Of a stretch of 64,000 nucleotides of DNA, positions 8,509 to 32,135 are shown piece by piece. Below the pieces are notes generated by a model. The model ran no database searches, was not told the DNA's origin, and worked only from the letters and a program-made list of their open reading frames with translations. The translations under genes and the position numbers were made by a program. Position 1 is the stretch's first letter; every line of letters starts with the position of its first letter. The stretch covers positions 7,063 through 71,062 of the forward strand of contig DATBMA010000062.1 in NCBI GenBank assembly GCA_036555105.1, written 5' to 3'. This DNA is from Acidimicrobiia bacterium (GTDB taxonomy: Bacteria > Actinomycetota > Acidimicrobiia > Spongiisociales > ZC4RG35).

Positions 8509-11500
8509 CCTTCGAACCGACGCCCGAGCAGCAGGCGGTCATCGACGCCCCCACCGGTCCGCTGCGGGTGTCGGCCGGCGCGGGAACCGGCAAGACCACC
8601 ACCATCGCCCTGCGGGTGGCATCAATGGTGACCAATGGCGGAGTCGCCCCCGAGGAGGTCCTCGGGGTCACGTTCACCAACAAGGCGGCCGGCGAGCTGT
8701 CCGACCGGATCCGATTCCATCTCGCCTCCCGTGTCGAGGCCGGACAGGAGGTCGAGGTCCGCACCTATCACGGCTTCGCCGCCCAGATCGTCCGGGAGTT
8801 CGGCGTGCTGATCGGGATCGAACGGGGCACCAAGGTCATCAGCCCCACCTACAGCCGCCAGCTGCTGCTGGAAGTGATGCGGCGCCATCGCCTGCCCGGC
8901 GTCGACCAGACCTACTTCCAGGTCGTGGGGAGGATGCTCCGACTGTCGTCCAGCCTCGGCGACCACCTCCTGACCGCCAGAGAGGTGGCGGCCCCTGAGG
9001 GAGCCGGCGGGGCCTGGGTGGAGCGGGCGGGGCTGTTGGAAGGCCTTCGCCACTACGAGTTGGAGAAGAGGCGGCTGGGGGTGGCCGACTACGGCGATCT
9101 GATCACCGGCGCCCACCGGGTCTTGATCGAGCGGCCGGAGACGGCCGCCCGCATCTCCGCCCGGTACCGGGTCGTCCTGCTCGACGAGTATCAGGACACC
9201 AACCCGGCCCAGCGAAAGATGCTCCAGGCGCTCTTTCCATCCGGGCACTCGGTGACCGCGGTCGGGGACACGGACCAGACCATCTATGAATGGAGGGGAG
9301 CCTCCCTCGACAACTTCAGGAGCTTCCCCCTTCACTTTCCGTCGGCCTCAGGCCATCCGGCGCCGACCCTTCCCCTCACCTTCAACCGGCGGTCCGGTAC
9401 CAGGATCATCGAAGTGGCGAACGCCATCCGCGACCAGATCGGGTCGGACTCGGCCCCGCTGCAGCCCAAGCCCGACGCCCCCGAAGGCGGGGTGGAGACC
9501 GCTTGGTGGCGAACCTCGGTCGACGAGGCCGAATGGATAGCCACCCGGCTGGAGGAGTTGCACGAATCGATGCGCTGGCGCGACGCGGCGGTCCTGTTCC
9601 GCAAGAACAAGGACATCCCGTTGATCCTGGAGACTCTTGGCCGCCACGAGATCCCGGTCGAGGTCGCCAATCTGGGTGGGCTGCTCTCGGTTCCCGAGGT
9701 GACCGACCTCCACTGCTGGCTGCGGATCCTGGCGGATCCCGAGGACGGTCCCGCCTTGGCCAGGGTGATGCTTGGGTCCGGCTACCGGCTGGGCCTGGCC
9801 GACCTGGCCGCACTGGCCAGGTGGGTTCGAAGCCTGCGGCCCAGGCGACCCGAGCGTGATGACGAGGCGGGGCCCTCGCCGATCGAAGCCGTCGACCGAC
9901 TCGAAGACGTGGCCGGCCTCCGACCGGAGGCGGCACCGGTCCTCCAGTCGTTCCGCGCCACCTACAGAGCGCTGTTGGTGGCCGCCCAGGGATCATCCCT
10001 GGTGGAGTTGTGCCGGACGGTGCTCGAGGCCACCCGCGCCTGGTCCCACGTCGATGCCTTGCCCAGCGCATCGAGGCTTAGTGCCCGGCTCAACCTCTAC
10101 AGATTCCTCGATCTGGCAGAGGACTGGTCGCCGTTGGAGGGGCGCCCCTCGTTGGATGCATTCCTGCTCTTCCTCGCCGACTCGGCGGACGCCGAGGCCG
10201 ACGAGCTCGATCCGGCGCGGCTGTCTGGCGCCGATGCAGTCACCCTGGTGACGGTCCACCGAGCCAAGGGCTTGGAGTGGGAAGCCGTCTTCCTGCCCGC
10301 CGTCCACAAGGACAACTTCCCTTCCCGGCAGATCAACTCGGACAATCCGCGCAAGAACGCCCAGTCCCTGCCCTATGAGCTGCGCCTCGACGCCGGCGAC
10401 CTGCCTGGCCCGGAGATGACCGACGCCAAGTTCGAGGCCGCGGTCCGCGAGCGTCACCTCCAGCAGGAGTGGCGAGTGGCGTACGTCGCCGCCACCAGGG
10501 CCAAGAGCCTCCTGGCGGTGAGCGGCGCCTTTTGGGGGGGCAGCCCCGAGCCGAACACCAACCCGCGGGAGCCCAGCCCGCTGTTCGAGCTCGTCGACAG
10601 CCATCCGATGTCAAGGCAAGTGAACTTCGAACCCGATCCGGGCGAGCAGCCCGAGCTGCTCGGACTCGAGCCGACGGCCCCCTCCCCTGATCCCACCTTC
10701 GCCAGCGGTTGGGAGGAGGCCATGCGACGCGCCATCGCCGACCCCGCCTACCCGGCCCAGCTGGCTGACGAGCTGAAGGTGTCCGACGCGTTCGAGCGCA
10801 GATTGGCCGACGAGGAGGCGACCCTGTTCGACCTACCCCAACTCCCGGGCGAGGAGGCCTCCGCTACTCCCATCGTCTCGGTGACCGGGCTGGTCACCTA
10901 TGCATCCTGTCCCCTCCGGTACAGGTGGTCGGAGGTCGACCGACTGCCCCAGCGACGCTCACCGGCGGCCAGGCGCGGGTCCGAGGTGCACCGGCGCATC
11001 GAGCTCCACAACCTGGGAGTGGTCCCGCTCGACGATCTCGCCTTCGACACATATGACGCCACTTCCGACGTCACCACCGCCGCAGGACAGGACGAACGAC
11101 CTCACGACCCCATGGTCTCTTTCCTCGGCTCGCGCTTCTCGACCGACAGGCCCCTGCTGACAGAGGCCCCGTTCGAGTTGCGACTCAATTCGGGCACCAA
11201 GGTGCGCGGGCGGATCGATGCCGTGTACGAGAGCTCGGAGGGAATCTGGGAGGTGGTCGACTTCAAGACCGGCCCGCCGAGCGCCGACCCGGCCACCCGC
11301 GTGCAGCTGCAGGCATACGCGGTGGCGGTCGAGGACGTCCCGTTTCGCAGCAATCCGCCCGATGATGTGACCGTCACCTTCGCCCACCTAGGCAAGGAGG
11401 CAATCGAGCTGAGCGAGCACGTCGATGAAGCCTGGCTGCAGGAGGCGCGAGAACATCTGGATCAGCTGACGGCCGGGATCGAGGCGCAGGCCTACCCGGC

Positions 11501-11573
11501 CACCCCGGGTCCCGGCTGCGCGAGCTGTGACTTCTTCGGCTTCTGCGCCGCCGGCCAGGCCTATCTCAGCTGA
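8505..11573 (+). CDS. adnB: AdnB-like subunit of an ATP-dependent helicase-nuclease (UvrD-like helicase fused to a RecB nuclease with Fe-S cysteines).
   Basis: The start was set at ATG 8505 (reading MTFEPTPEQQAVIDAP), in frame with the track ORF 8115-11573, whose upstream extension is Arg/Gly-rich. It has the Walker A motif GAGTGKTTT and DEYQDT, the C-terminal nuclease motif EVVDFKTG and the cysteines PGCASCDFFGFC. Confidence 0.75.
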   Translation: MTFEPTPEQQAVIDAPTGPLRVSAGAGTGKTTTIALRVASMVTNGGVAPEEVLGVTFTNKAAGELSDRIRFHLASRVEAGQEVEVRTYHGFAAQIVREFGVLIGIERGTKVISPTYSRQLLLEVMRRHRLPGVDQTYFQVVGRMLRLSSSLGDHLLTAREVAAPEGAGGAWVERAGLLEGLRHYELEKRRLGVADYGDLITGAHRVLIERPETAARISARYRVVLLDEYQDTNPAQRKMLQALFPSGHSVTAVGDTDQTIYEWRGASLDNFRSFPLHFPSASGHPAPTLPLTFNRRSGTRIIEVANAIRDQIGSDSAPLQPKPDAPEGGVETAWWRTSVDEAEWIATRLEELHESMRWRDAAVLFRKNKDIPLILETLGRHEIPVEVANLGGLLSVPEVTDLHCWLRILADPEDGPALARVMLGSGYRLGLADLAALARWVRSLRPRRPERDDEAGPSPIEAVDRLEDVAGLRPEAAPVLQSFRATYRALLVAAQGSSLVELCRTVLEATRAWSHVDALPSASRLSARLNLYRFLDLAEDWSPLEGRPSLDAFLLFLADSADAEADELDPARLSGADAVTLVTVHRAKGLEWEAVFLPAVHKDNFPSRQINSDNPRKNAQSLPYELRLDAGDLPGPEMTDAKFEAAVRERHLQQEWRVAYVAATRAKSLLAVSGAFWGGSPEPNTNPREPSPLFELVDSHPMSRQVNFEPDPGEQPELLGLEPTAPSPDPTFASGWEEAMRRAIADPAYPAQLADELKVSDAFERRLADEEATLFDLPQLPGEEASATPIVSVTGLVTYASCPLRYRWSEVDRLPQRRSPAARRGSEVHRRIELHNLGVVPLDDLAFDTYDATSDVTTAAGQDERPHDPMVSFLGSRFSTDRPLLTEAPFELRLNSGTKVRGRIDAVYESSEGIWEVVDFKTGPPSADPATRVQLQAYAVAVEDVPFRSNPPDDVTVTFAHLGKEAIELSEHVDEAWLQEAREHLDQLTAGIEAQAYPATPGPGCASCDFFGFCAAGQAYLS

Positions 11574-16630: not shown

Positions 16631-19354
16631 ATGACGGACCCCGGCGAATCGCGCCGGACCCTTCCCGACGAGTTCGTACACCAGCTCACCGACAACGACC
16701 CGGTCGAGACGCAGGAATGGATCGACTCGCTCGATCAGGTGGTGTCGGCCCACGGGCCGGTGCGGGCGCGCTACCTGCTTGCCAAGCTGCTCGAACGCGC
16801 TCACCAGACCAACCTCGGCATCCCACCCACCATCACCACGCCTTATGTGAACTCGATCCCGCCGGAGGAGGAGCCCGAGTACCCGGGTGACACCGACCTC
16901 GAGCAACAGATCCGGCGCTACATCCGCTGGAACGCGGCAGTGATGGTGGTCAAGGCCAACCACGCCGAGAAGGGCATCGGCGGCCACCTCTCCACCTTTG
17001 CCTCATCCGCCACTTTGTACGAGGTGGGCTTCAACCACTTCTTCCGCGGCAAGGCCGACGGCAGCCCGGGCGACCACGTCTATTTCCAGGGCCACGCCGT
17101 GCCAGGCGTATATGCCCGCGCATTCCTGGAGCGGCGGCTCGATGAAGGACAGCTGGACAACTTCCGATTTGAGATCGGCGGCAACGGGCTGTCGTCATAC
17201 CCCCACCCACGGCTGATGCCCGACTTCTGGGAGTTCCCAACCGTCTCCATGGGCCTGGGCCCGATCAACTCCATCTACCACGCCCGCTTCAACCGCTATC
17301 TCCACAATCGCGGAATCGACGACACCTCCGACTCCAAGGTCTGGTGCTTCCTCGGCGACGGCGAGACCGACGAGCCGGAGACGTTGGGAGCGATCGGACT
17401 GGCAGCCAGGGAGCGGCTCGACAACCTCATATGGGTGGTCAACTGCAATCTCCAGCGCCTTGACGGGCCGGTGCGGGGCAACGGGAAGATCATCCAGGAG
17501 CTCGAGGCCGTGTTCCGAGGGGCCGGGTGGAACGTCATCAAGGTGATCTGGGGATCTGGCTGGGATCCGCTGCTCGCCGCCGACAAGGACGGCGCCCTCG
17601 TCCAGGTGATGACCGACACCGTCGACGGCGAGTACCAGCGATACAAGGCGGAGGATGGGGCCTTCGTCCGCGAGCGCTTCTTCGGCAAGGACCCCCGCAC
17701 CCTGGCCTTGGTGGAGAAATGGACCGACGACGAGATCTGGGCACTGCGACGCGGCGGGCTGGACTTCCGCAAGGTGTACTCGGCTTATCGCCTGGCCAGT
17801 GAGATGACCGAGGCGCCGACGGTCGTGCTGGCCAAGACCATCAAGGGCTGGACGCTCGGCCCTGACGTGGAAGGGCGCAACGCCACCCATCAAATCAAGG
17901 AGCTCACCAACCAGCAGCTGATGCAGCTGCGAACCCGGCTCCACCTCGAGAACGAGATCCCGGCCGAGGCGCTCGAAGGGGACCGCGAGCCACCCTACTT
18001 CCGGCCGCCGGAGGACTCCCCCGAGTTCCAGTACCTGCAGGAGAGGCGCAAGATCCTCAACGGCAGCGTGCCCACCAGGGTGGTCCGCACCCGGCGGCCG
18101 ATGACCCTGCCGGGGCCGGAGCCGTTCGCCGACATCTACGCGGGAAGCGACAAGGTGGACGCCTCCACCACTACGGCCTTCACACGCCTCGTGCGCAACC
18201 TGTCGAGAGTGGAGGGATTCGGGGACCGGGTGGTTCCAATCGTCCCTGACGAGGCCCGCACCTTCGGCATGGACTCATTGTTCAAGGAGCTGAAGATCTA
18301 CGCCTCGCAAGGCCAGCTGTACGAGCCGGTCGACGCCAAGATGGTCCTCTCCTACAGCGAGTCGCGCGACGGCCAGATCCTCGAAGAAGGGATAACCGAG
18401 GCCGGCTCCACCGCCAGCTGGATTGCCGCCGCCACCTCCTACGCGGTGCGGGGCGTCCCAATGGTCCCGTTCTTCATCTTCTATTCGATGTTCGGCTTCC
18501 AGCGGGTCGGGGACCTGCTGTGGGGCGCGGGCGACGCCAGAGCCCGCGGCTTTCTCCTCGGCGCCACCGCCGGCAGGACCACCCTCCAGGGTGAGGGGCT
18601 CCAGCACCAGGACGGCCACAGCCTGATCCTCTCCTCCACCAATCCAGCCTGTGAGTCATACGACCCCGCCTTCGCATACGAGGTGGGGGTGGTCGTCGAG
18701 CGGGGGCTGCAGCGCATGTACGGGGCAGAACCCGAGGACGTCTTCTTCTACGTCACTCTCTACAACGAGAACTTCCGACAGCCGCCCAAGCCCGACGGTG
18801 TCGACCAGGGTGTGGTCGACGGCCTCTACCGCTTCGCTGCCGCCCCGGAGGGCACGAACCTGGGCGCTGCCCTTCTGTTCTCCGGCTCGGCCAACCTGGC
18901 CGCGAGGGAGGCGGCCGCGGTGCTGGCCAACGAGTACGGGGTGGGCGTGGAGTTGTGGTCGGCAACCTCCTATCAACGCCTGCGCCGCGAGGCGATGGAG
19001 GCAGAGCGATGGAATCGCCTCCACCCAGGGCTGCCCCCGCGGGTGCCGATGGTGACCAGGCTGCTCTCCCACGTTCAAGGCCCGGTCGTCGCGGTGACTG
19101 ACTTCATGCACATGGTCCCCGACCAGGTCGGCCGCTGGGTCCCCGGCGGGCTGGCCACCCTGGGCACGGACGGCTACGGCAGGTCCGACAGTCGCGCCCG
19201 GCTGCGCCGATTCTTCGAGGTCGACGCCCCCCATGTCACGGTGGCGGTGTTGGCCTCCCTGGCGGCCGCCGGGAGCCTCGAGCCTGCGGTCGTCCACGAT
19301 GCCATCACCCGTTACGGAATCGACCCCGAGACGGCGCCTCCCTGGCTGCGCTGA
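16631..19354 (+). CDS. aceE: Pyruvate dehydrogenase E1 component, homodimeric type.
   Basis: It is 907 aa long. It has an AceE-like N-terminus (DNDPVETQEWIDSLD), and the TPP-binding and transketolase-like regions are conserved throughout. Confidence 0.9.
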   Translation: MTDPGESRRTLPDEFVHQLTDNDPVETQEWIDSLDQVVSAHGPVRARYLLAKLLERAHQTNLGIPPTITTPYVNSIPPEEEPEYPGDTDLEQQIRRYIRWNAAVMVVKANHAEKGIGGHLSTFASSATLYEVGFNHFFRGKADGSPGDHVYFQGHAVPGVYARAFLERRLDEGQLDNFRFEIGGNGLSSYPHPRLMPDFWEFPTVSMGLGPINSIYHARFNRYLHNRGIDDTSDSKVWCFLGDGETDEPETLGAIGLAARERLDNLIWVVNCNLQRLDGPVRGNGKIIQELEAVFRGAGWNVIKVIWGSGWDPLLAADKDGALVQVMTDTVDGEYQRYKAEDGAFVRERFFGKDPRTLALVEKWTDDEIWALRRGGLDFRKVYSAYRLASEMTEAPTVVLAKTIKGWTLGPDVEGRNATHQIKELTNQQLMQLRTRLHLENEIPAEALEGDREPPYFRPPEDSPEFQYLQERRKILNGSVPTRVVRTRRPMTLPGPEPFADIYAGSDKVDASTTTAFTRLVRNLSRVEGFGDRVVPIVPDEARTFGMDSLFKELKIYASQGQLYEPVDAKMVLSYSESRDGQILEEGITEAGSTASWIAAATSYAVRGVPMVPFFIFYSMFGFQRVGDLLWGAGDARARGFLLGATAGRTTLQGEGLQHQDGHSLILSSTNPACESYDPAFAYEVGVVVERGLQRMYGAEPEDVFFYVTLYNENFRQPPKPDGVDQGVVDGLYRFAAAPEGTNLGAALLFSGSANLAAREAAAVLANEYGVGVELWSATSYQRLRREAMEAERWNRLHPGLPPRVPMVTRLLSHVQGPVVAVTDFMHMVPDQVGRWVPGGLATLGTDGYGRSDSRARLRRFFEVDAPHVTVAVLASLAAAGSLEPAVVHDAITRYGIDPETAPPWLR

Positions 19355-19410
19355 CCAGGGCTTTCTTCTCAGGTTTGGTCCTTCAGACCCACTAACCCGG
19401 GCCTCTCGCC

Positions 19411-21504
19411 GTGCCGATAAAGGAATCGGTCACGAGGAGGGCTGCCGGCCTGGCTGCACCCGAGCTCCATACGCCCGAGCGGTGGCGCTCCCGAAGGGGA
19501 GCGGCCGCGCTTTTGCGCGCCTGTGTCTTCCTGCTCCCGCTGGGTGCCGGCTACCTCGCCGGAAGGATCGTCTCGGCTTCCCTGCCTGAGCCGAGCTCGG
19601 TCGCCGAGACAGTGGGATGGTGGGTTCTGGTCCTCGCCTCCGCCGCCGTGGCCGGCCATTTCGCCGACCGGCTGGGACGCCGACTCCTCCCGCTCACGGT
19701 CCTGCTGCGGATGACCATGCTCTTCCCCGACCAGGCCCCTTCCCGCCTGCGCATCGCCCAGCAGGCCGGCAACGTCACCGAGCTCAAGCGCCGTATCCAC
19801 GAGTCCCTCGAACAGGGCAACAACGACATGGCGGCTACCTCCGAGCTGATCCTGTCACTGGCCGGTGCGCTCAGCGCTCATGACCGCAAGACCCGCGGAC
19901 ACTCGGAGCGGACCCGCGCATACGCCGACCTCCTGGCCGAGCAGATGCGAATCCCCGACGATGGGCGGGACCGGCTGCGGTGGGCAGCCCTGCTCCACGA
20001 CGTCGGCAAGCTGGAGATACCGGGCGAGATCCTCAACAAGAACGGCCCGCTATCGGAGGATGAGTGGGAGCTGGTCAGCAAGCACCCGATCCATGGAATG
20101 CGGCTGATCGCTCCCCTGGCCGAATGGCTCGGCCCCTGGGCGCAGACCATCGAGCATCACCACGAGCGCTGGGATGGCTCCGGCTATCCATACGGGCTGG
20201 TCGGAATCGACATCGCGCTGGGGGCGCGCATCGTCTCTGTGGCCGACGCATACGACGTGATCACCACCGGCCGCTCGTATCAGAGCAAGGTCGACCACGC
20301 TTCGGCCCGGGCCGAGATCGCGAAGCACTCTGGAACCCAATTCGACCCCACTGTGGTGCGGGCGCTGATGAACCTGAACCTGACCAAGATGAGATGGGCC
20401 ACCGGGCCGTTGGCGGCCCTGGCCGAGTTTCCTTTGCTACGGCCCCTGCAGTCGCTCGGTCGCGATGTCTCCACGCTGCTGTCGGCAGCGGCGGTTGTGG
20501 GAGCGGCCGGGCTGGCGGGCGTGGCCGCGGCTCCGATCCTGCCGCCCCCGCCGGTGGTCGCCGCCGAAGCTCCCTCGACCTCCACCACCCAGACGACATC
20601 GGCCGCGGTCGGCACCACCATCCCCGGGCCCGGCACCACCCTCGACTCGACCACCACCTCCCAGGCCGAGGGGCCGACGACGACCACCTTCGTCGAGCCG
20701 ACCGTCACCCAGCCGGGATCCACCACCCAGCCTCCGACCACTACCACCACTGAGCCCACCACGACCAGCCAGCCGACCACCACCTCCACCACCCAGCCTT
20801 CAACCACGACCACCACCCAGCCGACCACCACCTCGACCACCCAGCCATCCACCACCACCACCACCCAGCCTCCCACCACGACCACCACCCAGCCCGGCAA
20901 CCACCCGCCCAATGCCGTGAACGACACCGCCACCACTCAGACCGGGCGAAGGGTCGACATCCCGGTGCTGGCCAACGACAGCGACCCGGACGGGGACCCG
21001 ATCACGATCAGGCCGCCGCTGGGCAGCCCTCAGCACGGGACCGTATCCCTACGCAATAACGGAACCGTCGTCCGCTACCGACCTGCCCAGGGTTTCGCCG
21101 GCAGCGACAGCTTCGGTTACACGGTTTGCGATTCCCACAACGCCTGTTCCACGACGACCGTGGCGGTAACGGTCACGCCCAACGGACAGCCTCCGAATGC
21201 CCAACCCGATTCAGCATCGGTATCCCCGGGAGAATCGGTCTGGATACAGGTCCTGCGCAACGACTCCGACCCGAACGGGGACCTGAACAACAACAGCCTC
21301 ACGATCACGGTGCCACCCCCTGCCGGGCAGGGCAATGCGGTGGTCAGCAACAGTTGGAGTCGCTGTGGCCGAGGCAATGGAGTGCGGCCCTGCATCCGCT
21401 ACACGGCGCCGCCGCTTTTCACCGGGACCGTGGTGTTCACATATCGAGTGTGTGACTTCGGTGGCAACTGTTCGACGGCAACGGTGACTGTCACCGTCTC
21501 CTGA
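19411..21504 (+). CDS. HD-GYP phosphodiesterase with two N-terminal TM helices, a third TM helix, and a C-terminal Thr/Pro-rich linker plus two cadherin-like/VCBS-like repeat domains.
   Basis: It has the HD-GYP signatures HDVGKLEIP and HHERWDGSGYPYGL. After residue about 330 there is a TM segment (LLSAAAVVGAAGLAGVAAAPILPPP), then a TTTQP repeat region, then VNDTATTQTGRRVDIPVLANDSDPDGDPITI and a second LRNDSDPNGD-containing repeat. Confidence 0.75.
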   Translation: MPIKESVTRRAAGLAAPELHTPERWRSRRGAAALLRACVFLLPLGAGYLAGRIVSASLPEPSSVAETVGWWVLVLASAAVAGHFADRLGRRLLPLTVLLRMTMLFPDQAPSRLRIAQQAGNVTELKRRIHESLEQGNNDMAATSELILSLAGALSAHDRKTRGHSERTRAYADLLAEQMRIPDDGRDRLRWAALLHDVGKLEIPGEILNKNGPLSEDEWELVSKHPIHGMRLIAPLAEWLGPWAQTIEHHHERWDGSGYPYGLVGIDIALGARIVSVADAYDVITTGRSYQSKVDHASARAEIAKHSGTQFDPTVVRALMNLNLTKMRWATGPLAALAEFPLLRPLQSLGRDVSTLLSAAAVVGAAGLAGVAAAPILPPPPVVAAEAPSTSTTQTTSAAVGTTIPGPGTTLDSTTTSQAEGPTTTTFVEPTVTQPGSTTQPPTTTTTEPTTTSQPTTTSTTQPSTTTTTQPTTTSTTQPSTTTTTQPPTTTTTQPGNHPPNAVNDTATTQTGRRVDIPVLANDSDPDGDPITIRPPLGSPQHGTVSLRNNGTVVRYRPAQGFAGSDSFGYTVCDSHNACSTTTVAVTVTPNGQPPNAQPDSASVSPGESVWIQVLRNDSDPNGDLNNNSLTITVPPPAGQGNAVVSNSWSRCGRGNGVRPCIRYTAPPLFTGTVVFTYRVCDFGGNCSTATVTVTVS

Positions 21505-21519
21505 CCCTACGATCGGTCG

Positions 21520-22311
21520 GTGCGCGCCGGCTACGACCGACTCCCGTTCGACCAGGTGAAGGATGATGCCCGCGACTGGGTCTCATTCGAGGACCCCGAC
21601 TTCGAGCGCACGTGGATCTTCGACGCCACTTTTCTCACCTCCAACTGGAAGTGCATCTACGGAGCCGGCTGCCTAGGCATCCTCCCTTACGCAGCTCCCG
21701 AAAAGGCATTGGGATGCTGCCACCTCGGCGCCTACCTGACGGACGGCAAGGACGCACGCCGGGTTGAGAAGGCGGCCGCCAGGCTCACCCCCGAGCAGTG
21801 GCAGCACATCCCGGCACCAGACAAGAGCCCGCTCCGCAATCGTCCTGGTGGGGACCGCAGCACCCGGGTGGTGGACGGCGCCTGCATCTTCCTCAACCGG
21901 CCCGGCTTTGCAGGTGGCACGGGCTGTGCCCTTCACATCGGGGCCGTGGCCGCCGGGGAGGAACCGCACACCTGGAAGCCAACCACCTGCTGGCAGCTGC
22001 CCTTGCGCCTCGAAGACACGGTCGACGACAACGGGTGGATGACCTCGATCGTGCGCGAGTGGCGGAGCCGTGACTTCGGGCCGGGCGGCGAGGAGTTCAA
22101 CTGGTGGTGCACGGAGTCACCACTCGCCTTCGTGGGGGCGACTCCGGTCTATGTCGGCTTGCGAGCGGAGCTGGTGGAGATGATTGGTCCGCGTGTGTAC
22201 GAGATGCTGGCTGCCAAGCTGCGCCGCCCGCAGCTGCTACCCCATCCGATGATGCGCAACGGTCACACCAGTCCGCCGGCCAAGGCCCCCAATCCCAGAA
22301 CCACCGCGTAG
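21520..22311 (+). CDS. Conserved hypothetical cysteine-rich protein.
   Basis: It has a GTG start and 263 aa. It carries about 9 Cys in clustered pairs (CIYGAGC, GCCH, ACIFLNRPGFAGGTGC, TCW, WWC). I could not assign a family from memory. Confidence 0.4.
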   Translation: MRAGYDRLPFDQVKDDARDWVSFEDPDFERTWIFDATFLTSNWKCIYGAGCLGILPYAAPEKALGCCHLGAYLTDGKDARRVEKAAARLTPEQWQHIPAPDKSPLRNRPGGDRSTRVVDGACIFLNRPGFAGGTGCALHIGAVAAGEEPHTWKPTTCWQLPLRLEDTVDDNGWMTSIVREWRSRDFGPGGEEFNWWCTESPLAFVGATPVYVGLRAELVEMIGPRVYEMLAAKLRRPQLLPHPMMRNGHTSPPAKAPNPRTTA

Positions 22312-24197
22312 GCGAGCAGTCCGCCGACCACCACCCCCCACCGCAGCCAGGCGGGTAGCTTGGAGCGGCCGAAGACGAAATAGATGATCGGCCCCAGGAG
22401 GGGGACGAGCAGGATCACCGCCAGCCAGCCGACCACCCGCCAACCACTGCGACCGGACTGGGCCAGATCGATCAGGGCGATGGCGAGCCATGCTGCGTAG
22501 AGAGCCACCGGCAAGAAGTAGCCGAACACCTCGAAGAACGTCGAGGTGGCCGAGCCGAGCACCATCCCGAACACAGTAACCACGGGCGCCTGGTCGGCTA
22601 CCAGCCCGGCAGGCATGGGCGGGACCGAGACCGCCGCCAGGTCGACCACGGCCCCGGCAAAGACCGACACCGCCGGATGCACAGCGGCAAACTCGATATC
22701 CGGCATCGGCTCCTGCAGCCCGGGAGTCGGAGCACTCCCCACCGGGTTGTCGGGTGCCCGTCCGAGGTTGGTGTCTGCAAAGCGACCCGCCAACTCCATC
22801 AAGGCCGCCAGCTCGTACTTGACCGGCAGCCGCAGCCCGGTGCAGCCGTGCACAAGTTGCAGCCCTGGCGGGAGGCTGGTCGCAGCCTGGTTGTCACTGA
22901 AGCAGTTGCCGTCCCCGGCCGGCCCTGCCATGGCCAGATCCGCCCGGCCAGAGCCTTCGACCAGATTCCCCTCGACCCGGTTGTCCGAGCTGGTCCAGAA
23001 GTTCTTGTCGAGGATCGGGGTGACGATGATCCCGTTGCCCTGGTGGTTCACCACGCGGTTGCGGATCACCTGTGACCCGTTGCTGCCGGCCAGGACGATG
23101 CCGTTGCCGAACCCGGCCCACTCCCACGCCTTCATCGGCGCTTCCAGGTTGTCGTTGTCGTGCACGAGATTGCCCGCGATCACCACCTCCTGGGATGGAG
23201 GCAGTAGCTCGGAGTCGAGGGTGTTGGGAACGATGCCGGCCCCATTGAACCGGAAGACCGACTCCACGATGTAGATGTCACCCGACGAGTTGGTCCCCGA
23301 GTAGCCGAGCCCGTTCCACTCCGAGATCACATCTCGAATCATCGCCCGGCACGGGTTGCACTGGCCGACATAGAAGCCAGAGTCGGGCGAGCCCGAGGCA
23401 TAGGAGTGCTCGAACAATCCCTCCGACGCGTCGAAGGCATAGATGCCGTAGTCGCCGTTGTCGATGGCCGTCACGTAGGACGCCCGGTAGCCGACCACCC
23501 GGCTCCAGTAGATGCCGTTCAGGTCGGCGTTGCGGACCGTCAGATTCTCGACCGCCACCCCGTCGGCGAACACGTCGATTGCGTTCTCATGACCGTCAGC
23601 GTCGATTACCACCTCATTGCGGTCCGTGCCTCTTATCACCAGTCCCGGGGTGCCGACTTCCACCCCTTCCCGGTATACCCCTGGCGCGATCAGGATCAGA
23701 TCACCTGGCTCGGCGGCGTCGACCGCCGCCTGAATGGTGGGATACTCGTCGGGGACGTTGCGGGTCTCGCCGGACCAGCCTGCGGGAGCCTGGCTATGGG
23801 CGGCGCCCTGGGCGGCAGCCGAGGCATCGGGGTCCCCCACGATCACCTTGCCGGCCATCCCGCTGCCGTAGGCGGTGCCGTGGAACGTGCAGAAGAACTC
23901 GTACTGGCCCGGCTGGTCAAAAGTGACGGCGGCTGCGTCTCCGTCCAGTTGATTCAGGCTCCCGAACGAGTCCTCGGTGCTCCATGAGCCGTCTGAGGCG
24001 ACCGCATTGTGAGGGTTGCGGCCCGCCCCGACAAATGTGACGGTGCCCCCCACCGGGACATGCACCTCGGCGGGGCCGAAGCTGTTGTCGAGCATCTCGA
24101 CCACCGCATCACCGGTGGCCTGGCTCTCGGCGCAGGCCCCCAAAGCCAATGCCGTCACCGGCAGCAGCAAGAGCCACCACCGGCCGTGCCGGGTCAC
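22263..24197 (-). CDS. Predicted lipoprotein with a type-1 copper (cupredoxin) domain, a NosD-like right-handed beta-helix domain and a C-terminal membrane-embedded PLDc_N-like segment.
   Basis: The start was set at GTG 24197, which overlaps the coxG stop as GTGA and is in frame with the track ORF. It has a signal/lipobox-like RWWLLLLPVTALALGAC, a cupredoxin ligand pattern CTFHGTAYGSGM, parallel beta-helix repeats (NLTVRNADLNGIYW..., VISEWNGLGYSG..., NLVHDNDN) and a C-terminal LAVILLVPLLGPIIYFVFGRS (PLDc_N-like). Confidence 0.65.
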   Translation of the reverse strand: MTRHGRWWLLLLPVTALALGACAESQATGDAVVEMLDNSFGPAEVHVPVGGTVTFVGAGRNPHNAVASDGSWSTEDSFGSLNQLDGDAAAVTFDQPGQYEFFCTFHGTAYGSGMAGKVIVGDPDASAAAQGAAHSQAPAGWSGETRNVPDEYPTIQAAVDAAEPGDLILIAPGVYREGVEVGTPGLVIRGTDRNEVVIDADGHENAIDVFADGVAVENLTVRNADLNGIYWSRVVGYRASYVTAIDNGDYGIYAFDASEGLFEHSYASGSPDSGFYVGQCNPCRAMIRDVISEWNGLGYSGTNSSGDIYIVESVFRFNGAGIVPNTLDSELLPPSQEVVIAGNLVHDNDNLEAPMKAWEWAGFGNGIVLAGSNGSQVIRNRVVNHQGNGIIVTPILDKNFWTSSDNRVEGNLVEGSGRADLAMAGPAGDGNCFSDNQAATSLPPGLQLVHGCTGLRLPVKYELAALMELAGRFADTNLGRAPDNPVGSAPTPGLQEPMPDIEFAAVHPAVSVFAGAVVDLAAVSVPPMPAGLVADQAPVVTVFGMVLGSATSTFFEVFGYFLPVALYAAWLAIALIDLAQSGRSGWRVVGWLAVILLVPLLGPIIYFVFGRSKLPAWLRWGVVVGGLLAYAVVLGLGALAGGLV

Positions 24198-24748
24198 TTG
24201 TGGCGGCGGAACAGGTTCTTGAACCAGGCTGCCAGGCTGGCGAAGAACAGCGAGATGCCCTTGACCTCGCCCGCTTTGATGGCCGCGGCCTCCTCGGCGG
24301 TGCCCGCCTCGAGCTTTCCTTCCAGGCACTGGGCGAACTCGCCTATGAGACGCGACGACATCTCGTTGATCAGGCCGGTGCGACCGAACTGGGCAGCGGC
24401 ACCGCTCAAGGTGACATCGGCCTCGATCTTGACATCGGTTCCTCCCTCGGCCGGGGCGATTGAATAGCCCACCTTCACTTGACCGCGGCTCCCTCCTTTG
24501 CGGTCGACGCCGGTGCCGTCGATCACACAGGTCCGGGTGCTCGAGTCGGGGTTGATCAACGCCTCACCCTCGAAGACCGCATGGAGGGGCCCGAGCTTGA
24601 CCGAGACCTTGCCAATGCAAGTGCCGTCCTCAGCCACCGAGATGAGCTCGGCACCGGGCATGCAGGCGGCGACAGCCGGCACGTCCTGGAAGAAGTCCCA
24701 CACGACGTCGGGCGTGCGCGCAACCTGGAATTGATGCGTCATCTTCAT
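24194..24748 (-). CDS. coxG: SRPBCC-fold protein of the CoxG family (carbon monoxide dehydrogenase subunit G-like).
   Basis: It begins MKMTHQFQVARTPDVVWDFFQDVPAVAACMPGAELI and is 184 aa long. Confidence 0.75.
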   Translation of the reverse strand: MKMTHQFQVARTPDVVWDFFQDVPAVAACMPGAELISVAEDGTCIGKVSVKLGPLHAVFEGEALINPDSSTRTCVIDGTGVDRKGGSRGQVKVGYSIAPAEGGTDVKIEADVTLSGAAAQFGRTGLINEMSSRLIGEFAQCLEGKLEAGTAEEAAAIKAGEVKGISLFFASLAAWFKNLFRRHK

Positions 24749-27232: not shown

Positions 27233-27646
27233 ATGACTTCGGAAGACGGCGTCGAGCCGATAGGGCCGACCTCCGGATCGGCGGTGGAGGACTCCATCCT
27301 CCGGGCGATCGCCCAAGGCGATTTCGACCAGCTTCCGGGAGCCGGGAAGCCGATTCCCGGGCGGGGGGTGGCAGACCCGCCCGGTTGGTGGGCGCAACGC
27401 CTCCTCGATGACGAGCGGCGACGACGCACGAGGGCACGGGAGGACGCACTACTGGAGGCAGAGTTGAGCGCCATCTGGATGCTCGAAATCGAGGCGGAAG
27501 CCAGGGCAGCCGCCGAGGACCTGGCTCGAAGGGTCACCTCGATCAACGCCGCACGGCTGGCGGAAGATGCATTTCCCACGCCCGAGCCCGATCAAGTTAT
27601 GGCTGAGTGGAGGGCGATGTCGGCGGCGCGCCGGGCCCGCCCCTAG
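27233..27646 (+). CDS. DUF1992 (DnaJ-C28-like) domain protein.
   Basis: It has the DUF1992 core IAQGDFDQLPGAGKPIPGRG and is 137 aa long. Confidence 0.5.
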   Translation: MTSEDGVEPIGPTSGSAVEDSILRAIAQGDFDQLPGAGKPIPGRGVADPPGWWAQRLLDDERRRRTRAREDALLEAELSAIWMLEIEAEARAAAEDLARRVTSINAARLAEDAFPTPEPDQVMAEWRAMSAARRARP

Positions 27647-30336
27647 CTGTGCTTGCGCCGCATCAGCCGCTGCAGGGTCTCCGACTCGGACAGGGTGGGG
27701 GGCGGCTGTCCCCCGGCCTCGGCCTCCTGCTTCTTCTCGTCGACCTGCTTGCGCCCGCGCACCTTGGCCGGGGTGAAGCCCGACTTCCATGCGGAGCTGT
27801 CGCCTGCGGTGAAGACCAGCCGTCGCAAGGCGACGTCGGCCAGGAAGAGGGCGAGGGCCAGGCCCACCAGCCATGGCCAGACACCGACCTCGGCGCTGCC
27901 CCTGACCGGCGCCGGATCGAAGACCGAGTCGGCTGCTGGGTCGATCCGCCCGCCGGTGGGGCCGGTCAGGTCGGTGGCCAGAGTCGGGTCGGGCTCGCGA
28001 AAGGCGAACTCCTCCTGGTAGCTGGAAACCGCCCCCGAGCTGGAGCCGGTGCGGGAGCCGTCCTCGCCGTCCAGCAGCACAGACACCCAGTAGGCGCCTG
28101 GCCCGGAGGCGGGCGCGTCGGCCACGAAGGTATCTGAGCCGAGGCGGCTCATCGGAACCAACACCACCTCGCCGCCGGGCAGGCGGATGCGGGCGGTGGC
28201 GGTGTCGTCGATGCCCGCCCCCTCGGCGGTGTAGCTGACCTTCACGCGCCCGTCCTCCACCGCGACCTCCGGCGGGTTGTCCCTGCCGGCCGGAAGGACG
28301 TCGCGCACGACCTTGCCCCAGAATTCCACGTACCCGTCCCAGTCGACCCAGAGGGATGACCAGCGGGCGGTTGCATCCGAGGTCCACACCGACGCCCGGC
28401 CGAGCCCGCGTTGCCAAGAGGCGAAGAGAGGATCTCCCGGCCCGATCTCGAGCGCGACCGAGGCGGTGCCCTTCGCCTTGGTGAGCACGTAACCGAGTAG
28501 CGCCGGCGAGCTCGTGAGGCCGGCCGTCACCTGCGACGGCGCCGCCAGGGCCGGGAAGAAGCTGCCCTCCTCGGCGAGGTTGCGGGCGACTGTCAGAGTC
28601 TCTTCCACGAAGATGTCGGGGATGGATTCGAGGTCGTCCCCCGGGTAGTAGCGGCCTCCGCCCAGCTCGGCCATGCGTTGCAGGGCGCTGCCAGGGCCCT
28701 CCCCGGTACCGAGAACCGAGAGGGTCACGCCGGCGTCGGCGATCTCGCGAGCGATTGGAAGGAGGTTGGCGTCGCTCGGGTCCCAGCCGTCGGTGAAAAG
28801 CACGATGTGCCGCAGCGACTCCGGCACGTCGCGCAGGCTGTCGAGCGCCACCTCCAGCGCCGCCGAAATCTCGGTGTCGCCGTTGGGGGTGATGGTGCCA
28901 AGTGCATCTCGCACCTCCGCTGTCCCCGGACGCTGTGCCAGCGGCAGCACCCAGCGGCTGCCCGAGGTGAAGGCCAGGACCCCCACCCGATCGGTGTCGG
29001 ACAACGCCTGGATCGCCAGCTCCGCCCCCGCCTTGGCGATGTCGGTCTTGACGACCCCGCCCTCCTGGGCATTGCCACTGTTGCAATGGCAGGCCGCCAT
29101 CGAGCCGGATGAGTCGATGACCAGTACCTCGGCCACCGGCTGGCGCCGCACCAGGTCGTCGGGATTGGAGGAGACGGGCAGGACCGACTCCAGCGCCGTG
29201 AGGTGATAATCACCGAGCCCGAAGGATTGGTCGCCGCCGATCACCACCAGGCCCCGCCCCAGGTCCTCGACGAACGAGGCGAGGGCCGCGGCGGAGGCAT
29301 CTGAAGGACGGTCCACGTTCACCAGGACCACGGCGTCGTAAGTCAGCAGCTGCTCCGGCCCGGGAATGGTGCCAACCAACTCGACATTGATCCCTCCGGC
29401 CTCGAGTGCCCTGGTGACCTCGTCCGCCTCGCCTTCAACTCCCTCGACCACCGCCACTTTGGCCGGGCCAAGGACCCGAGTGATCCCCTCGGCTTCGTCG
29501 TTCTCGGGCCGCTCGTCGAAGGGTGCCGTCAGCCTGGCGTCCACCCGCAGGAACCCGCTTTCGCCTGCCGGCACCTCCACTTCCACCTCGTTGCGGCCGG
29601 CTTCGAGCTCGATGTCCATCTCCTGGCGATCGGCGCCCGCCGTCACCACCAGATGGGCGGTCCCAGCGACGTTGGAGCGGATGACCACCGTGGCGGTGAC
29701 CATCTCACCCTGTCTGACCGATGAGGGAAGGCGGACCGACTCGACCAACCCATCTGCCGCCCGGCCCGGGTCCAGCGAGACCACGTCTACGGCGATGCCG
29801 GCCTCCTCCAGCTGGGTGACCACTTCCCTGGGATCGGCCCCGGTCGCCACCAGGTCGGTCAGCACGATGATCCGGCGGGAGCCCTCACTCGGCATCAAGG
29901 CCGCCGCCCCCCGCAGGGCGCCGGCCAGGTCAGAGGCCGACCCGTCCACTTCGGTGAGGATCGGGGCGAACAGTCGCCCAGGGGTGAAGGCTGACTCGAG
30001 GCGCAGCTCGGACCCGAACACCGCGATCGCGGACCGATCAGCAGGGCGACCCTGATCGAGGGCGGCCGCCAGGTATTGCTCCTGCAGCGCCCGCGCCTCC
30101 GATGAGATCGAGGCGGATCTGTCGAGGAGGAAGAGGACGTGCCGGTCTTCGACGGCGCGGTTGAGGATCGGAGCGGCCGCGGCCAGGACCAACAGCACCA
30201 GCGCCACGGTGCGGGCCACCACCGCCCAACGATGCTGGGAGCGCGGCACGGTGCGCCCCCCGCGTCTAGCAACGAAGTGCGCGATGAGCAACACCGGCAC
30301 CAGGGCGAGCAACCACCAGGGGTTCTCGAAGCTCAC
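27643..30336 (-). CDS. Large membrane-anchored von Willebrand factor A (VWA) domain protein (BatB-like) with a C-terminal TM helix.
   Basis: The start was set at GTG 30336, which overlaps the upstream stop as GTGA and gives a BatA_N-like start VSFENPWWLLALVPVLLIAHFVARRGG. It has the VWA motifs LFLLDRSASIS and VLVIDSSGSM, and a C-terminal TM segment WPWLVGLALALFLADVAL. Confidence 0.75.
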   Translation of the reverse strand: MSFENPWWLLALVPVLLIAHFVARRGGRTVPRSQHRWAVVARTVALVLLVLAAAAPILNRAVEDRHVLFLLDRSASISSEARALQEQYLAAALDQGRPADRSAIAVFGSELRLESAFTPGRLFAPILTEVDGSASDLAGALRGAAALMPSEGSRRIIVLTDLVATGADPREVVTQLEEAGIAVDVVSLDPGRAADGLVESVRLPSSVRQGEMVTATVVIRSNVAGTAHLVVTAGADRQEMDIELEAGRNEVEVEVPAGESGFLRVDARLTAPFDERPENDEAEGITRVLGPAKVAVVEGVEGEADEVTRALEAGGINVELVGTIPGPEQLLTYDAVVLVNVDRPSDASAAALASFVEDLGRGLVVIGGDQSFGLGDYHLTALESVLPVSSNPDDLVRRQPVAEVLVIDSSGSMAACHCNSGNAQEGGVVKTDIAKAGAELAIQALSDTDRVGVLAFTSGSRWVLPLAQRPGTAEVRDALGTITPNGDTEISAALEVALDSLRDVPESLRHIVLFTDGWDPSDANLLPIAREIADAGVTLSVLGTGEGPGSALQRMAELGGGRYYPGDDLESIPDIFVEETLTVARNLAEEGSFFPALAAPSQVTAGLTSSPALLGYVLTKAKGTASVALEIGPGDPLFASWQRGLGRASVWTSDATARWSSLWVDWDGYVEFWGKVVRDVLPAGRDNPPEVAVEDGRVKVSYTAEGAGIDDTATARIRLPGGEVVLVPMSRLGSDTFVADAPASGPGAYWVSVLLDGEDGSRTGSSSGAVSSYQEEFAFREPDPTLATDLTGPTGGRIDPAADSVFDPAPVRGSAEVGVWPWLVGLALALFLADVALRRLVFTAGDSSAWKSGFTPAKVRGRKQVDEKKQEAEAGGQPPPTLSESETLQRLMRRKHS

Positions 30337-32135
30337 GCCATTGCCTCCTTGCGCCGCAAGCCAGGTCGCTGATGGCCCACCCACCATTCGATCGCCATAA
30401 GGAGGAGAACCAGCCCGATGAACCATGGCGCCCACTCCCTTATCAACTGAGCCGCTTCCTGAGGGGCCCCGGGAGCATCGGCTGTGGCGATCTGACGCGA
30501 CGCTCCCGCCGACTCGTCAGAGACGAATGTCCTCACCGCCATAGGGCCGGGGCTGCTGGTGCCGTCCGCCTTCAGGTAGTCGACCCTGTAGAGACCGGGC
30601 AGGCCGGTGTCGGCAAAGGAAGCCGCTTCTGGCGGGAGGTCGCGGGTGGAGGCATCCGGGAGGGTGACCCTGGGAACGGTCCCGGCCGGGGCAGAGAGGG
30701 CGATGGGGGTGCCTGCCGTCTCGGAGGAAACCGTTCCAGCACCCGCCCCTGCCAGCCAATCGAGCAGCCTGGCTCCCAGGATCGGGAACCCGATCTGCAC
30801 CGGCAGGTTCGACTTGGAGATGTCGAACGTGAAGTATGCGACCCGCTGCCCTTCCACCTCGCCGAGGAGCACCAGCGGGACGTCCCCGGCTCTCACCAGA
30901 GGCAGCCAGCCTGGTGCATCCACCACTTGGGCTTCGGCCACCGCCACCTGTGAGAGATCGACGCCATCGAGGATGGGCTCCCCAGGCCGTTGCCAGGTGA
31001 CCACGGTGTTCCGTACCAGCTCCGTCGGTGTGATGCCGGCTGGCGGGGTCTCGGTGGCGATCACCCAGGCCGGCCTGTCGATGGTGGCACTCGCCCCGCC
31101 ATCGACCACCAGCAGCTCGGGCTCGCCTTCGCCACCGCCGGTGAAGCCAGGTGCGGCCTCGATCAGAGCAGCGAGGAATGGCGACCCCGAGCTGAGGCCT
31201 ACCTTCCTCTCCGGGCCTCCCCCCACCACCAGCACGGACTCGTCGTCGAGGCTCAGTGAGTCCTCCGTGTCGAGCAGCTGAACGGTGACCACGTCGCCGG
31301 GGCCGGCATCGACCGGGATCGTCTGCCTGGCCTCACCCAGCCCGGGCAACTCGAGGGTGACCACCCCGGCGGGCAGGCCGTTGACCGCCACCTCGGCCGC
31401 CACCGACTTGGCATCACCGCCGTAGTTCGAGAGCTGCAGGAACGCCCGCAGGCTTCCCTCGGTCGATGGCTCGATCGACCACGCACTCACTCCCACGTTG
31501 GGGCCGAAGTCGTCGATTCGGACCTGGCGGGCACCGGCGACCGGCTCCTCAGGCAGGGGGTCGGTGCCACCGTCGGAGAAGATCAGCAGGCTGGTCGGGC
31601 GATCGGGAGTGGCCAGGCCTCGACCCAGCCTGATGGCGGCAGAGAGGTCGCCGTTCCCGCCGGTCGCCTGAAGCGAAGTGATGGCGGCAATGACCAGGTC
31701 TGGATCCCGGGACAGGCCGGCGAGGACCCTGGGCTGCGCCCCGGCCTCCACCACCGACACCAGGTTGGCTTCAGAGATGTCGGCGACCATGGTCAGCGCC
31801 CGCTCCTTGGCCCGTTCCAGCCGCCCCGCCATCGCCATCGAGCCGGATACATCGAACACCATGACGGTGTGCGGGCCCAGCAGGGTGTCCTGCGAATAGA
31901 AGGGCCGGGCCAGGGTGAAGACCAGTGCAGCCAGCACCAAGAGTTGGAGCAGCAACAGAGGGGTGAGCCGCAGCTTCTGCCATGGGACCGCCGACGAAAC
32001 CGGAGCACCGACCTGCTCCCACAACAGAGTGCTCGGCACCTCCACCCGGCGCCGGCGGGAACGCAACATATAGAGGACAACCAGGGGGATGGCCAGGGAG
32101 GCCAGGCCCAAGGCGATCGGGGCCAGCAGGTTCAT
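30333..32135 (-). CDS. BatA-like VWA domain membrane protein.
   Basis: It has an N-terminal TM pair MNLLAPIALGLASLAIPLVVLYMLRSRRRR and the VWA motif VMVFDVSGSMAM. Its start overlaps the DUF58 stop as ATGA at 32132-32135. Confidence 0.75.
   Translation of the reverse strand: MNLLAPIALGLASLAIPLVVLYMLRSRRRRVEVPSTLLWEQVGAPVSSAVPWQKLRLTPLLLLQLLVLAALVFTLARPFYSQDTLLGPHTVMVFDVSGSMAMAGRLERAKERALTMVADISEANLVSVVEAGAQPRVLAGLSRDPDLVIAAITSLQATGGNGDLSAAIRLGRGLATPDRPTSLLIFSDGGTDPLPEEPVAGARQVRIDDFGPNVGVSAWSIEPSTEGSLRAFLQLSNYGGDAKSVAAEVAVNGLPAGVVTLELPGLGEARQTIPVDAGPGDVVTVQLLDTEDSLSLDDESVLVVGGGPERKVGLSSGSPFLAALIEAAPGFTGGGEGEPELLVVDGGASATIDRPAWVIATETPPAGITPTELVRNTVVTWQRPGEPILDGVDLSQVAVAEAQVVDAPGWLPLVRAGDVPLVLLGEVEGQRVAYFTFDISKSNLPVQIGFPILGARLLDWLAGAGAGTVSSETAGTPIALSAPAGTVPRVTLPDASTRDLPPEAASFADTGLPGLYRVDYLKADGTSSPGPMAVRTFVSDESAGASRQIATADAPGAPQEAAQLIREWAPWFIGLVLLLMAIEWWVGHQRPGLRRKEAMA

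Follow-up and report, generated by a model that had tools for sequence, protein, structure and literature searches.

How might a cytoplasmic enzyme of cyclic-dinucleotide turnover be joined, within a single polypeptide, to domains lying on the far side of the membrane? The question is raised by a gene of an Acidimicrobiia bacterium located at 19411..21504 (+ strand) of the window, the 64,000-nucleotide stretch of contig DATBMA010000062.1 (assembly GCA_036555105.1) analysed here, to which all positions refer. The open reading frame (ORF; GTG start, stop codon at 21502-21504) encodes a predicted 697-residue membrane HD-GYP phosphodiesterase with a C-terminal ectodomain, whose parts are, in order, two N-terminal transmembrane (TM) helices, the HD-GYP domain, a third hydrophobic helix, a Thr/Pro stalk and two Big_9/cadherin-like immunoglobulin-like (Ig) domains. 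On balance it is considered probable that the product is a one-component transmembrane signalling protein, whose phosphodiesterase would be regulated or localised by a surface domain that engages some target beyond the wall. The analysis establishes which domains are present, that the catalytic residues are conserved, and how large, modular and syntenic the family is. We only infer that the protein binds a ligand, that its ectodomain is coupled to catalysis, that its stalk is glycosylated and which dinucleotide it cleaves. Comparisons draw on the 120 top homologues with the full architecture, 78 full-length homologues, 121 close relatives (including the motif counts) and 44 homologues used for AlphaFold2 (AF2) modelling and for residue invariance.

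Predicted membrane topology and the C-terminal ectodomain

The two N-terminal TM helices are well defined. TM1 (~residues 31-53; 19501..19569, +) forms a hydropathy peak that AF2 models as a helix over residues 29-57 (predicted local distance difference test, pLDDT, 81-96). TM2 (~residues 64-86; 19600..19668, +), also apparent from hydropathy, belongs to a modelled helix of residues 64-104 that runs on into the cytoplasm, and its W70 and W71 are invariant. The loop connecting the two helices, predicted to lie outside, comprises ~10 residues in the query and ~13 residues, with about one basic residue, in the 78 full-length homologues. After TM2, the juxtamembrane segment RLGRRLLPLTVLLRMTMLFPDQAPSR (residues 87-112; 19669..19746, +) appears to provide a family-specific link between membrane and enzyme, with R90, P94, L99, F105, P106, D107, P110 and R112 invariant. 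Two conserved motifs are specific to the family, RRLLPL..LL.M..FPD.APSR after TM2 and GP......P before TM3. TM3 (~residues 353-378; 20467..20544, +) is Ala/Gly-rich, ends in AAAPILPPPP, displays the highest Kyte-Doolittle value of the three (2.01) and occupies the same position, at a constant distance after the GYP motif, in 120/120 of the top homologues. Its Hessa-scale sum in the query (+1.5) is better than those of TM1 and TM2, while the most hydrophobic 19-mer of the soluble domain reaches +8.5. In the AF2 model of residues 1-404, built from 44 homologues (mean pLDDT 78), the helix over TM3 extends from residue 350 to 368 with low confidence (pLDDT ~55-62).

Four independent lines, namely charge bias, cysteines, the position of TM3 and domain swaps among relatives, lead us to infer strongly that the N-terminus and the HD-GYP domain are cytoplasmic and that the C-terminal half lies outside the cell. 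In the full-length homologues, Lys plus Arg per 15 residues amount to 4.1 before TM1, 3.5 after TM2, 1.9 before TM3 and 0.46 after TM3, a positive-inside bias, and in the query both residues are absent from the first 100 positions past TM3. Cys content is 0.06 per 100 residues in the N-terminal part of the same 78 proteins compared with 1.54 after TM3, and the C-terminal Cys count is even (2, 4, 6 or 8) in 78/78, the pattern that disulfide bonding of an exported domain would produce. These Cys pairs, predicted to be extracytoplasmic, are accompanied in relatives by C-terminal domains of secreted type, described below. The sequence-only reading had predicted this same order, a TM-TM pair, HD-GYP inside, TM3, and stalk and repeats outside, and the four lines support it; the C-terminal domains match extracellular families and folds only, and no intracellular family. 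Signal-peptidase cleavage after TM3 was considered and is disfavoured, the query having Pro at +1 and its relatives a P-x-P exit motif that is not the AXA of signal peptidase I.

The choice of start codon bears on the first of these segments. The predicted cytoplasmic tail (residues 1-30; 19411..19500, +) is basic, with eight Lys/Arg in residues 1-36 before TM1, and carries a conserved ERWR motif, of which RW belongs to the family consensus. For the identical protein, public annotations (NCBI HEY7704399.1, JGI) place the start at TTG 19513 and give 663 residues; HEY7704399.1, from an Acidimicrobiia metagenome-assembled genome (MAG), is identical to the 697-residue protein from residue 35 on. 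The TTG start would remove the basic tail with its family-conserved RW motif, upstream of which GTG 19411 is the sole in-frame start. Conservation of this motif favours GTG 19411 over TTG 19513 as the true start. Database labels for family proteins are “HD domain-containing phosphohydrolase” or “Ig-like domain-containing protein”, and a promoter and terminator scan of 19200-22500 found nothing exceeding shuffled expectation.

TM3 is followed by a Thr/Pro/Ser-rich stalk of 117 residues, 45% Thr (residues 379-495; 20545..20895, +), which is predicted to be disordered and extracellular from its composition, from its 100 initial residues without Lys or Arg and from AF2 pLDDT values <50 from residue 374. 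Residues 379-490 (112) comprise 50 Thr, 18 Pro and 11 Ser, and the ~110-residue repeat of TTTQP type expected after TM3 was thus found. Thr/Pro linkers of this kind may be glycosylated in actinobacteria, and the stalk is probably O-glycosylated; an extended chain of ~117 residues could span a Gram-positive wall. The underlying DNA contains an imperfect 24-nt tandem repeat encoding TTT(S/T)TTQP units (20720..20905, no strand assigned), which was identified by Tandem Repeats Finder (periods 24/48/72, score up to 237) and by a repeat search returning copies 78-88% identical at 20756-20899. Repetitive linker DNA had been noted before, although at 20690-20900 and not at the limits of ~20720-20905 found here, together with the suggestion that linker length may vary. 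Length does differ between relatives at <=80% identity, but four near-identical alleles display no indels and no repeat-number polymorphism. Four residues in total separate the near-identical alleles P0001 and P0263 from the window, and three of these (397, 422 and 488) lie in the stalk.

The two repeats previously recognized by their ANDSDPDGDP and RNDSDPNGD motifs proved to be two Big_9 domains, extending over residues 497-589 (20899..21177, +; NDSDPDGD) and 598-697 (21202..21501, +; NDSDPNGD). Pfam detects Big_9 in two stretches (E 3.2e-37; 127.7 bits against a cut-off of 23.6), overlapped by Cadherin_4 (70.1 bits) and Cadherin_5 (53.0 bits), both above their curated cut-offs. Of the earlier description as cadherin-like or VCBS, the first half therefore holds, whereas neither VCBS nor He_PIG has a Pfam match at E <=1 in the query; He_PIG is present in one relative, P0042. 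The NCBIfam tandem-95 repeat model (NF012211) scored 75.9 bits, below its cut-off of 90. AF2 models the last 207 residues as two all-β Ig-like domains (mean pLDDT 94; ~95 in the first). Their Foldseek neighbours are cadherins, protocadherins, an RTX adhesin, SraP and GH107 accessory Ig modules (E 2e-9 to 1e-6), as well as phage collar proteins, and none is cytoplasmic. The motif N-D-x-D-P-x-G-D occurs twice (ANDSDPDGD and RNDSDPNGD), making Ca2+ binding putative, and the six C-terminal Cys form three local pairs, C573/C579 in the first domain and C652/C661 plus C681/C687 in the second.

Homologues with the same core carry other C-termini: CBM_2, a carbohydrate-binding module (CBM), in Acidothermaceae B102 (E 1.3e-17), CBM96 in P0056 (E 9e-28), three Big_9 in Gaiellaceae, and six Big_9 plus He_PIG in P0042. 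Among 63 broader representatives the C-terminal modules include Big_9 (23), fn3 (4), one each of CBM_3, PKD, Big_13, Big_6 and FecR, and also DUF11. By family, the swapped-in modules are of extracytoplasmic type, CBM2, CBM3 and CBM96 being obligately secreted. The label “adhesin-like” given to the module by the sequence-only reading thus stands as one option, but the CBM swaps point equally to ligand or polysaccharide sensing. The B102 gene (L006 7980-9893 of AP028633.1, the complete genome of an isolate strain) combines the same core with a Pro/Ala/Lys-rich stalk and CBM_2, and may serve as an experimental model.

The HD-GYP active site and its substrate

The predicted HD-GYP domain (residues 121-326; 19771..20388, +) aligns over its whole extent to the NosR-type HD-GYP response-regulator model of NCBIfam, and Pfam identifies HD_5 at residues 153-315 (E 2.5e-35; 122.2 bits, cut-off 27.2) and HD (67.1 bits, cut-off 22). 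AF2 models the domain confidently, with pLDDT mostly above 85-90, and the top Foldseek matches in the PDB are exclusively HD-GYP enzymes (PA4781, DvhD, PmGH, V-cGAP3 and Bd1817). PmGH (PDB code 4MCW), PA4781 (4R8Z), DvhD (9RBZ) and V-cGAP3 (5Z7C) display the same fold and motifs (Foldseek E 6e-10 to 4e-05; phmmer E 1e-34 to 4e-17), and all binuclear-site ligands and the GYP motif of the solved HD-GYPs are shared with the query. The HDVGK and HHERWDGSGYP motifs are intact, bearing out the earlier reading of the HD and GYP signatures. All metal ligands map exactly onto the published PmGH numbering (query first): H164=H189, H196/D197=H221/D222, H225=H250, H250/H251=H276/H277 and D279=D305. The substrate contacts correspond as Y259=Y285, K210/G212=K235/G237 and R288=R314. 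Metal ligands and G258-Y259-P260 are invariant in 44 homologues. The domain is thus predicted to be a catalytically competent cyclic-dinucleotide phosphodiesterase. The position of E185, the third-metal ligand of PmGH, is occupied by K160 (codon 19888..19890, +), and among 121 family members it is Lys in 63, Arg in 46 and never Glu or Asp. Lacking an acidic residue here, as does PA4781, the site is of binuclear type, and judged from this alignment the enzyme is a member of the binuclear subclass rather than of the trinuclear PmGH type; binuclear-type HD-GYP sites are discussed by Galperin and Chou (10.1101/2021.11.05.467447, section 6).

A second substitution concerns the substrate. The Lys that reads guanine in PmGH (K317) is replaced by Q291 (codon 20281..20283, +; aligned to 4MCW), and the resulting RSYQ is not the canonical cyclic di-GMP (c-di-GMP) motif Rxx(K/R) but agrees with the Rxx(Q/N) signature of selectivity for cyclic GMP-AMP (cGAMP). 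Gln is found at this position in 115/121 close relatives, whereas the broader family representatives (n=103) contain Lys in 66, Arg in 13 and Gln in 11, so that Gln is a derived and fixed trait of this Acidimicrobiia subfamily. The B102 gene displays RAYS at this position. In the work of Wright et al. (bioRxiv 10.1101/600031), RxxQ marks cGAMP-selective HD-GYPs: PmxA, which carries this motif, acts preferentially on 3',3'-cGAMP, and the single change Q518R switches its preference to c-di-GMP. The candidate cGAMP-specific HD-GYPs (GAPs) reported there come mainly from Proteobacteria and Firmicutes (10.1101/600031). With Gln in place of the Lys that reads the base, 3',3'-cGAMP is a serious candidate substrate, either instead of c-di-GMP or alongside it, and the earlier statement that the enzyme degrades c-di-GMP is not safe.

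The competing explanation, which we place only a little short of even, is that the protein is a canonical phosphodiesterase that hydrolyses c-di-GMP despite RSYQ, cGAMP having no role in these organisms. Lys or Arg is retained, as RxYK/R, in 79/103 broader family members, and one family member has a GGDEF-EAL gene in its neighbourhood. Two published results also count against a cGAMP assignment: S. venezuelae HdgA, with RxxS, still hydrolyses c-di-GMP (10.1101/2021.11.05.467447), and of five active RxxQ/N candidates three were cGAMP-selective while two degraded both dinucleotides (10.1101/600031), such that RxxQ is a signature and not proof. The closest PDB sequence match, V-cGAP3, is a cGAMP phosphodiesterase, yet carries RxxR. 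Set against the canonical reading are the near-fixation of Gln in the subfamily of the query and the switch brought about by Q518R in PmxA. A motif scan found no GGDEF, EAL or second HD-GYP within the 64-kb window, cGAMP synthases not having been sought genome-wide; the lone GGEEF string, located in a downstream 263-residue ORF (orf263), is not a GGDEF domain and has no GGDEF Pfam match.

Family distribution and genomic context

The full-length search returned 3736 matches, the best 120 of which all share the architecture (E <1e-148) and derive, where organisms are named, nearly always from Acidimicrobiia MAGs. The N-terminal module alone (two TM helices plus juxtamembrane segment, residues 20-150), searched against 1.84 billion representatives, matched 1385 clusters at 50% identity, 621 of them at E <=1e-10, and this family apparently belongs entirely to the Actinomycetota. 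The hydrophobic helix after GYP is present in 90/103 sufficiently complete representatives and HD_5 in 63/63 of those scanned. Whole-core genome matches come from at least Acidimicrobiia, Ilumatobacteraceae, Acidothermaceae, Kineosporiaceae, Gaiellaceae and Frankiales. The architecture, described as unusual by the sequence-only reading, is so in relation to the published HD-GYP census, but it is not rare and characterises a large actinobacterial family. Several members (P0124, P0128, P0241, P0253 and others) have N-terminal extensions of 100-300 residues before TM1. The Pfam summary of the 63 representatives also lists GGDEF in 2/63 and pentapeptide repeats in 2/63.

In the window the gene is preceded by GPAT, a radical-SAM protein, an α/β hydrolase and aceE, and followed by orf263, an oppositely oriented gene for a cupredoxin/β-helix/PLDc_N membrane protein, and xdhC. 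Seven further Acidimicrobiia loci (L001, L002, L083, L087, L088, L089 and L090) repeat the order radical-SAM, (hydrolase), aceE, HD-GYP, which makes the gene a stable orthologue. Its ectodomain comprises one Big_9 in L083, L087 and L088, two in the window and three to four in L001, L089 and L090, while that of P0056, a close relative on a short contig (L086), consists of CBM96. L001 (OZ244213.1, an Acidimicrobiia chromosome) holds tandem paralogues, P0082 and P0075, at 5636-7900 and 7980-10457 between aceE and xdhC. Although aceE always lies immediately upstream in the orthologous lineage, it was rejected as an operon partner: the arrangement looks like mere synteny, because the more distant members P0120 and P0042 occur in unrelated contexts. 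In a Kineosporiaceae MAG, of a different actinobacterial class, aceE lies ~2 kb from a family member (L008 5914-7437), in convergent orientation, a proximity that may stem from an ancient linkage or from chance.

The gene orf263 (21520-22311, +) starts 16 nt past the HD-GYP stop and encodes a Cys-rich protein of 263 residues with a sub-threshold DUF3109/Rv0495c match, 58% identical to the product of the gene after the CBM96-bearing relative (L086). Its counterpart shares the strand of the HD-GYP gene in L086 and L087 but not in L088, and is absent from L001, L002, L083, L089 and L090; occurring at only some loci and in either orientation, the DUF3109/Rv0495c-like gene was rejected as an obligatory partner. 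The convergent gene (22263-24329, -), whose 3' end overlaps orf263 by 49 nt, encodes 688 residues comprising a cupredoxin, a NosD-like right-handed β-helix and a C-terminal PLDc_N membrane region. The same fusion is found in L088, and L090 contains two separate genes beside a multicopper oxidase. Elsewhere in the window, an ORF with UvrD-helicase and PD-(D/E)XK nuclease domains (8115-11573, +) adjoins a 987-residue ORF (5545-8508, +), and the two might, at a guess, form an AdnAB/AddAB-like pair. A 930-residue protein with VWA and GATase1-like domains is encoded at 27643-30435 (-); neither of these regions has a connection with the HD-GYP gene.

Proposed function and relation to known systems

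In the proposed mechanism, TM1 and TM2 would form a hairpin with a ~10-residue outside loop, the conserved juxtamembrane helix would lead into the binuclear-type HD-GYP domain, and TM3 would act as an uncleaved signal-anchor exporting stalk and Ig domains. The ~117-residue stalk would cross the Gram-positive wall and present the two Ca2+-type cadherin-like Ig domains, so that the variable ectodomain could bind a ligand beyond the wall, for instance a polysaccharide, a surface or an adjacent cell. Once bound, it would alter the phosphodiesterase by making the membrane core cluster or dimerise or by putting TM3 under tension, routes favoured over a conformational relay because the stalk is disordered, and the altered activity would lower the cytoplasmic cyclic dinucleotide. 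Interchangeable modules on a constant membrane-enzyme core are a hallmark of modular sensors. Of the coupling of c-di-GMP turnover to a surface interaction, as suggested by the sequence-only reading, the surface-domain layout is supported, the coupling itself is conjectural and c-di-GMP as the messenger is not safe.

Several observations weigh against this proposal. TM3 is Ala/Gly-rich, marginal on the Hessa scale (+1.5; family mean +2.3) and modelled with low AF2 confidence. Many family members possess a low-complexity tail only, without a folded ectodomain, and a folded binding module is therefore not essential to the core. Conformational signals would travel poorly along a disordered stalk of ~117 residues, leaving regulation by the ectodomain conjectural. 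At the loci compared, no conserved partner gene points to a pathway.

The main rival, an anchor or adhesin without regulation, builds on the same features and is considered unlikely, though to be taken seriously; ectodomain shedding and a cytoplasmic C-terminus are minor alternatives. Here the ectodomain would do no more than tether the protein, or the cell, to wall polymers, matrix or surfaces, the HD-GYP domain would be constitutive or regulated from inside, and the fusion would serve to position dinucleotide degradation at certain membrane sites or to co-express two functions. A disordered stalk cannot relay conformational change, the ectodomains are interchangeable, some relatives retain a low-complexity tail only, and the structural neighbours are adhesins and cadherins, all of which would suit a tether. 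However, the strict juxtamembrane motifs flanking the HD-GYP domain (FPDxAPSR and GP...P) suggest helix-enzyme coupling, and the parallel with modular sensors such as RsgI favours sensing. It is highly improbable that the gene yields two products, TM3 serving as an internal signal sequence or being cleaved (by signal peptidase, by a sheddase or within the membrane by a protease), so that the Ig part would be set free from the enzyme and be secreted or attached to the wall. The Ala-rich TM3 contains AAA runs, a sequence type cut by site-2 proteases in RsgI, and RsgI-type sensors signal by proteolysis; yet Pro follows AAA in the query, the exit motif of relatives is P-x-P and not AXA, the Pfam scan of the query revealed no autoproteolytic domain, and the fusion persists in >1000 clusters. 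That TM3 fails to cross the membrane, leaving the Ig-like repeats to act in the cytoplasm, an idea drawing on the marginal hydrophobicity and low AF2 confidence of TM3, is scarcely credible in view of the even C-terminal Cys counts (78/78) and near absence of Cys from the N-terminal part, the Lys/Arg depletion past TM3, the Thr/Pro linker typical of secreted actinobacterial proteins, the CBM2, CBM3, CBM96, fn3 and PKD swaps in relatives and fold matches that are all extracellular proteins.

As a one-component transmembrane sensor, the protein differs from HD-GYP proteins described so far. In a published 2021 census, HD-GYP sensor domains are N-terminal only (REC, GAF, PAS, dCache, PBPb, CHASE2, MASE9-11), whereas the query enzyme is located between a two-TM hairpin and TM3, and its large variable domain is C-terminal and outside. 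The same census reports no HD-GYP with an extracytoplasmic sensor that has been experimentally characterised and mentions no cadherin or Ig fusions, and no literature was found pairing HD-GYP with a Big_9, CBM, cadherin-like or Ig-like domain. PmxA is likewise an RxxQ enzyme but has the order Cache-TM-HAMP-HD-GYP, with an N-terminal periplasmic sensor (10.1101/600031). Streptomyces HdgA and HdgB are also membrane-bound actinobacterial HD-GYPs; with six TM helices (MASE9), a C-terminal enzyme and no ectodomain they belong to a different family and were rejected as characterised relatives. LapD/LapG and DvhD-type systems similarly link cyclic-dinucleotide signalling to a surface repeat adhesin, and DvhD holds a domain of HD-GYP fold. 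They are, however, multi-protein inside-out systems of diderms in which the receptor controls a periplasmic protease, while in the query enzyme and surface repeats form one polypeptide in a monoderm, with no conserved protease partner nearby.

The closest working analogue may be RsgI, the anti-sigma-I factor of Clostridium thermocellum, which has the same order of cytoplasmic output, TM helix, wall-crossing region and variable C-terminal module (CBM3b, CBM42, PA14). The C-terminal module of RsgI senses extracellular polysaccharide, and CBM2, CBM3 or CBM96 likewise occur among relatives of the query. The query, which has no sequence homology with RsgI, uses an enzyme as its output where RsgI has an anti-sigma domain, and its two extra TM helices would keep this enzyme membrane-bound even after a cut in TM3. 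Pfam and NCBIfam found neither the SigI-binding nor the periplasmic Asn-Pro autocleavage domain of RsgI in the query, and the likeness is one of analogy only. Overall, the layout appears to be new for the HD-GYP class, with a possible substrate switch, and does not constitute a categorically new system.

Like RsgI, which senses insoluble polysaccharides, the family combines a wall-crossing stalk with swappable modules, thereby inverting the usual arrangement of an N-terminal sensor. If the coupling is real, it would link contact at the surface, or the binding of a polymer, directly and testably to the level of cyclic dinucleotides in Gram-positive actinobacteria, whose members with this gene include abundant, largely uncultured Acidimicrobiia of soil and water. 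Acidothermaceae bacterium B102, a cultured relative with a complete genome and the CBM2 version of the protein, makes experiments feasible, and the fixed RxxQ motif offers a clean test for cGAMP signalling in the phylum. It is possible, if rather doubtful, that the family founds a class of monoderm sensors passing surface contact to a second messenger, with a glycosylated, wall-spanning stalk, swappable modules (cadherin-like Ig, CBM2/3/96, fn3) that engage an external polymer or an adjacent cell, and an HD-GYP domain switched by clustering, tension or regulated TM3 cleavage, the messenger in Acidimicrobiia being 3',3'-cGAMP. Were 3',3'-cGAMP indeed removed by the Acidimicrobiia subfamily, this would imply that cGAMP has a housekeeping signalling role in this phylum, from which no such signalling is known.

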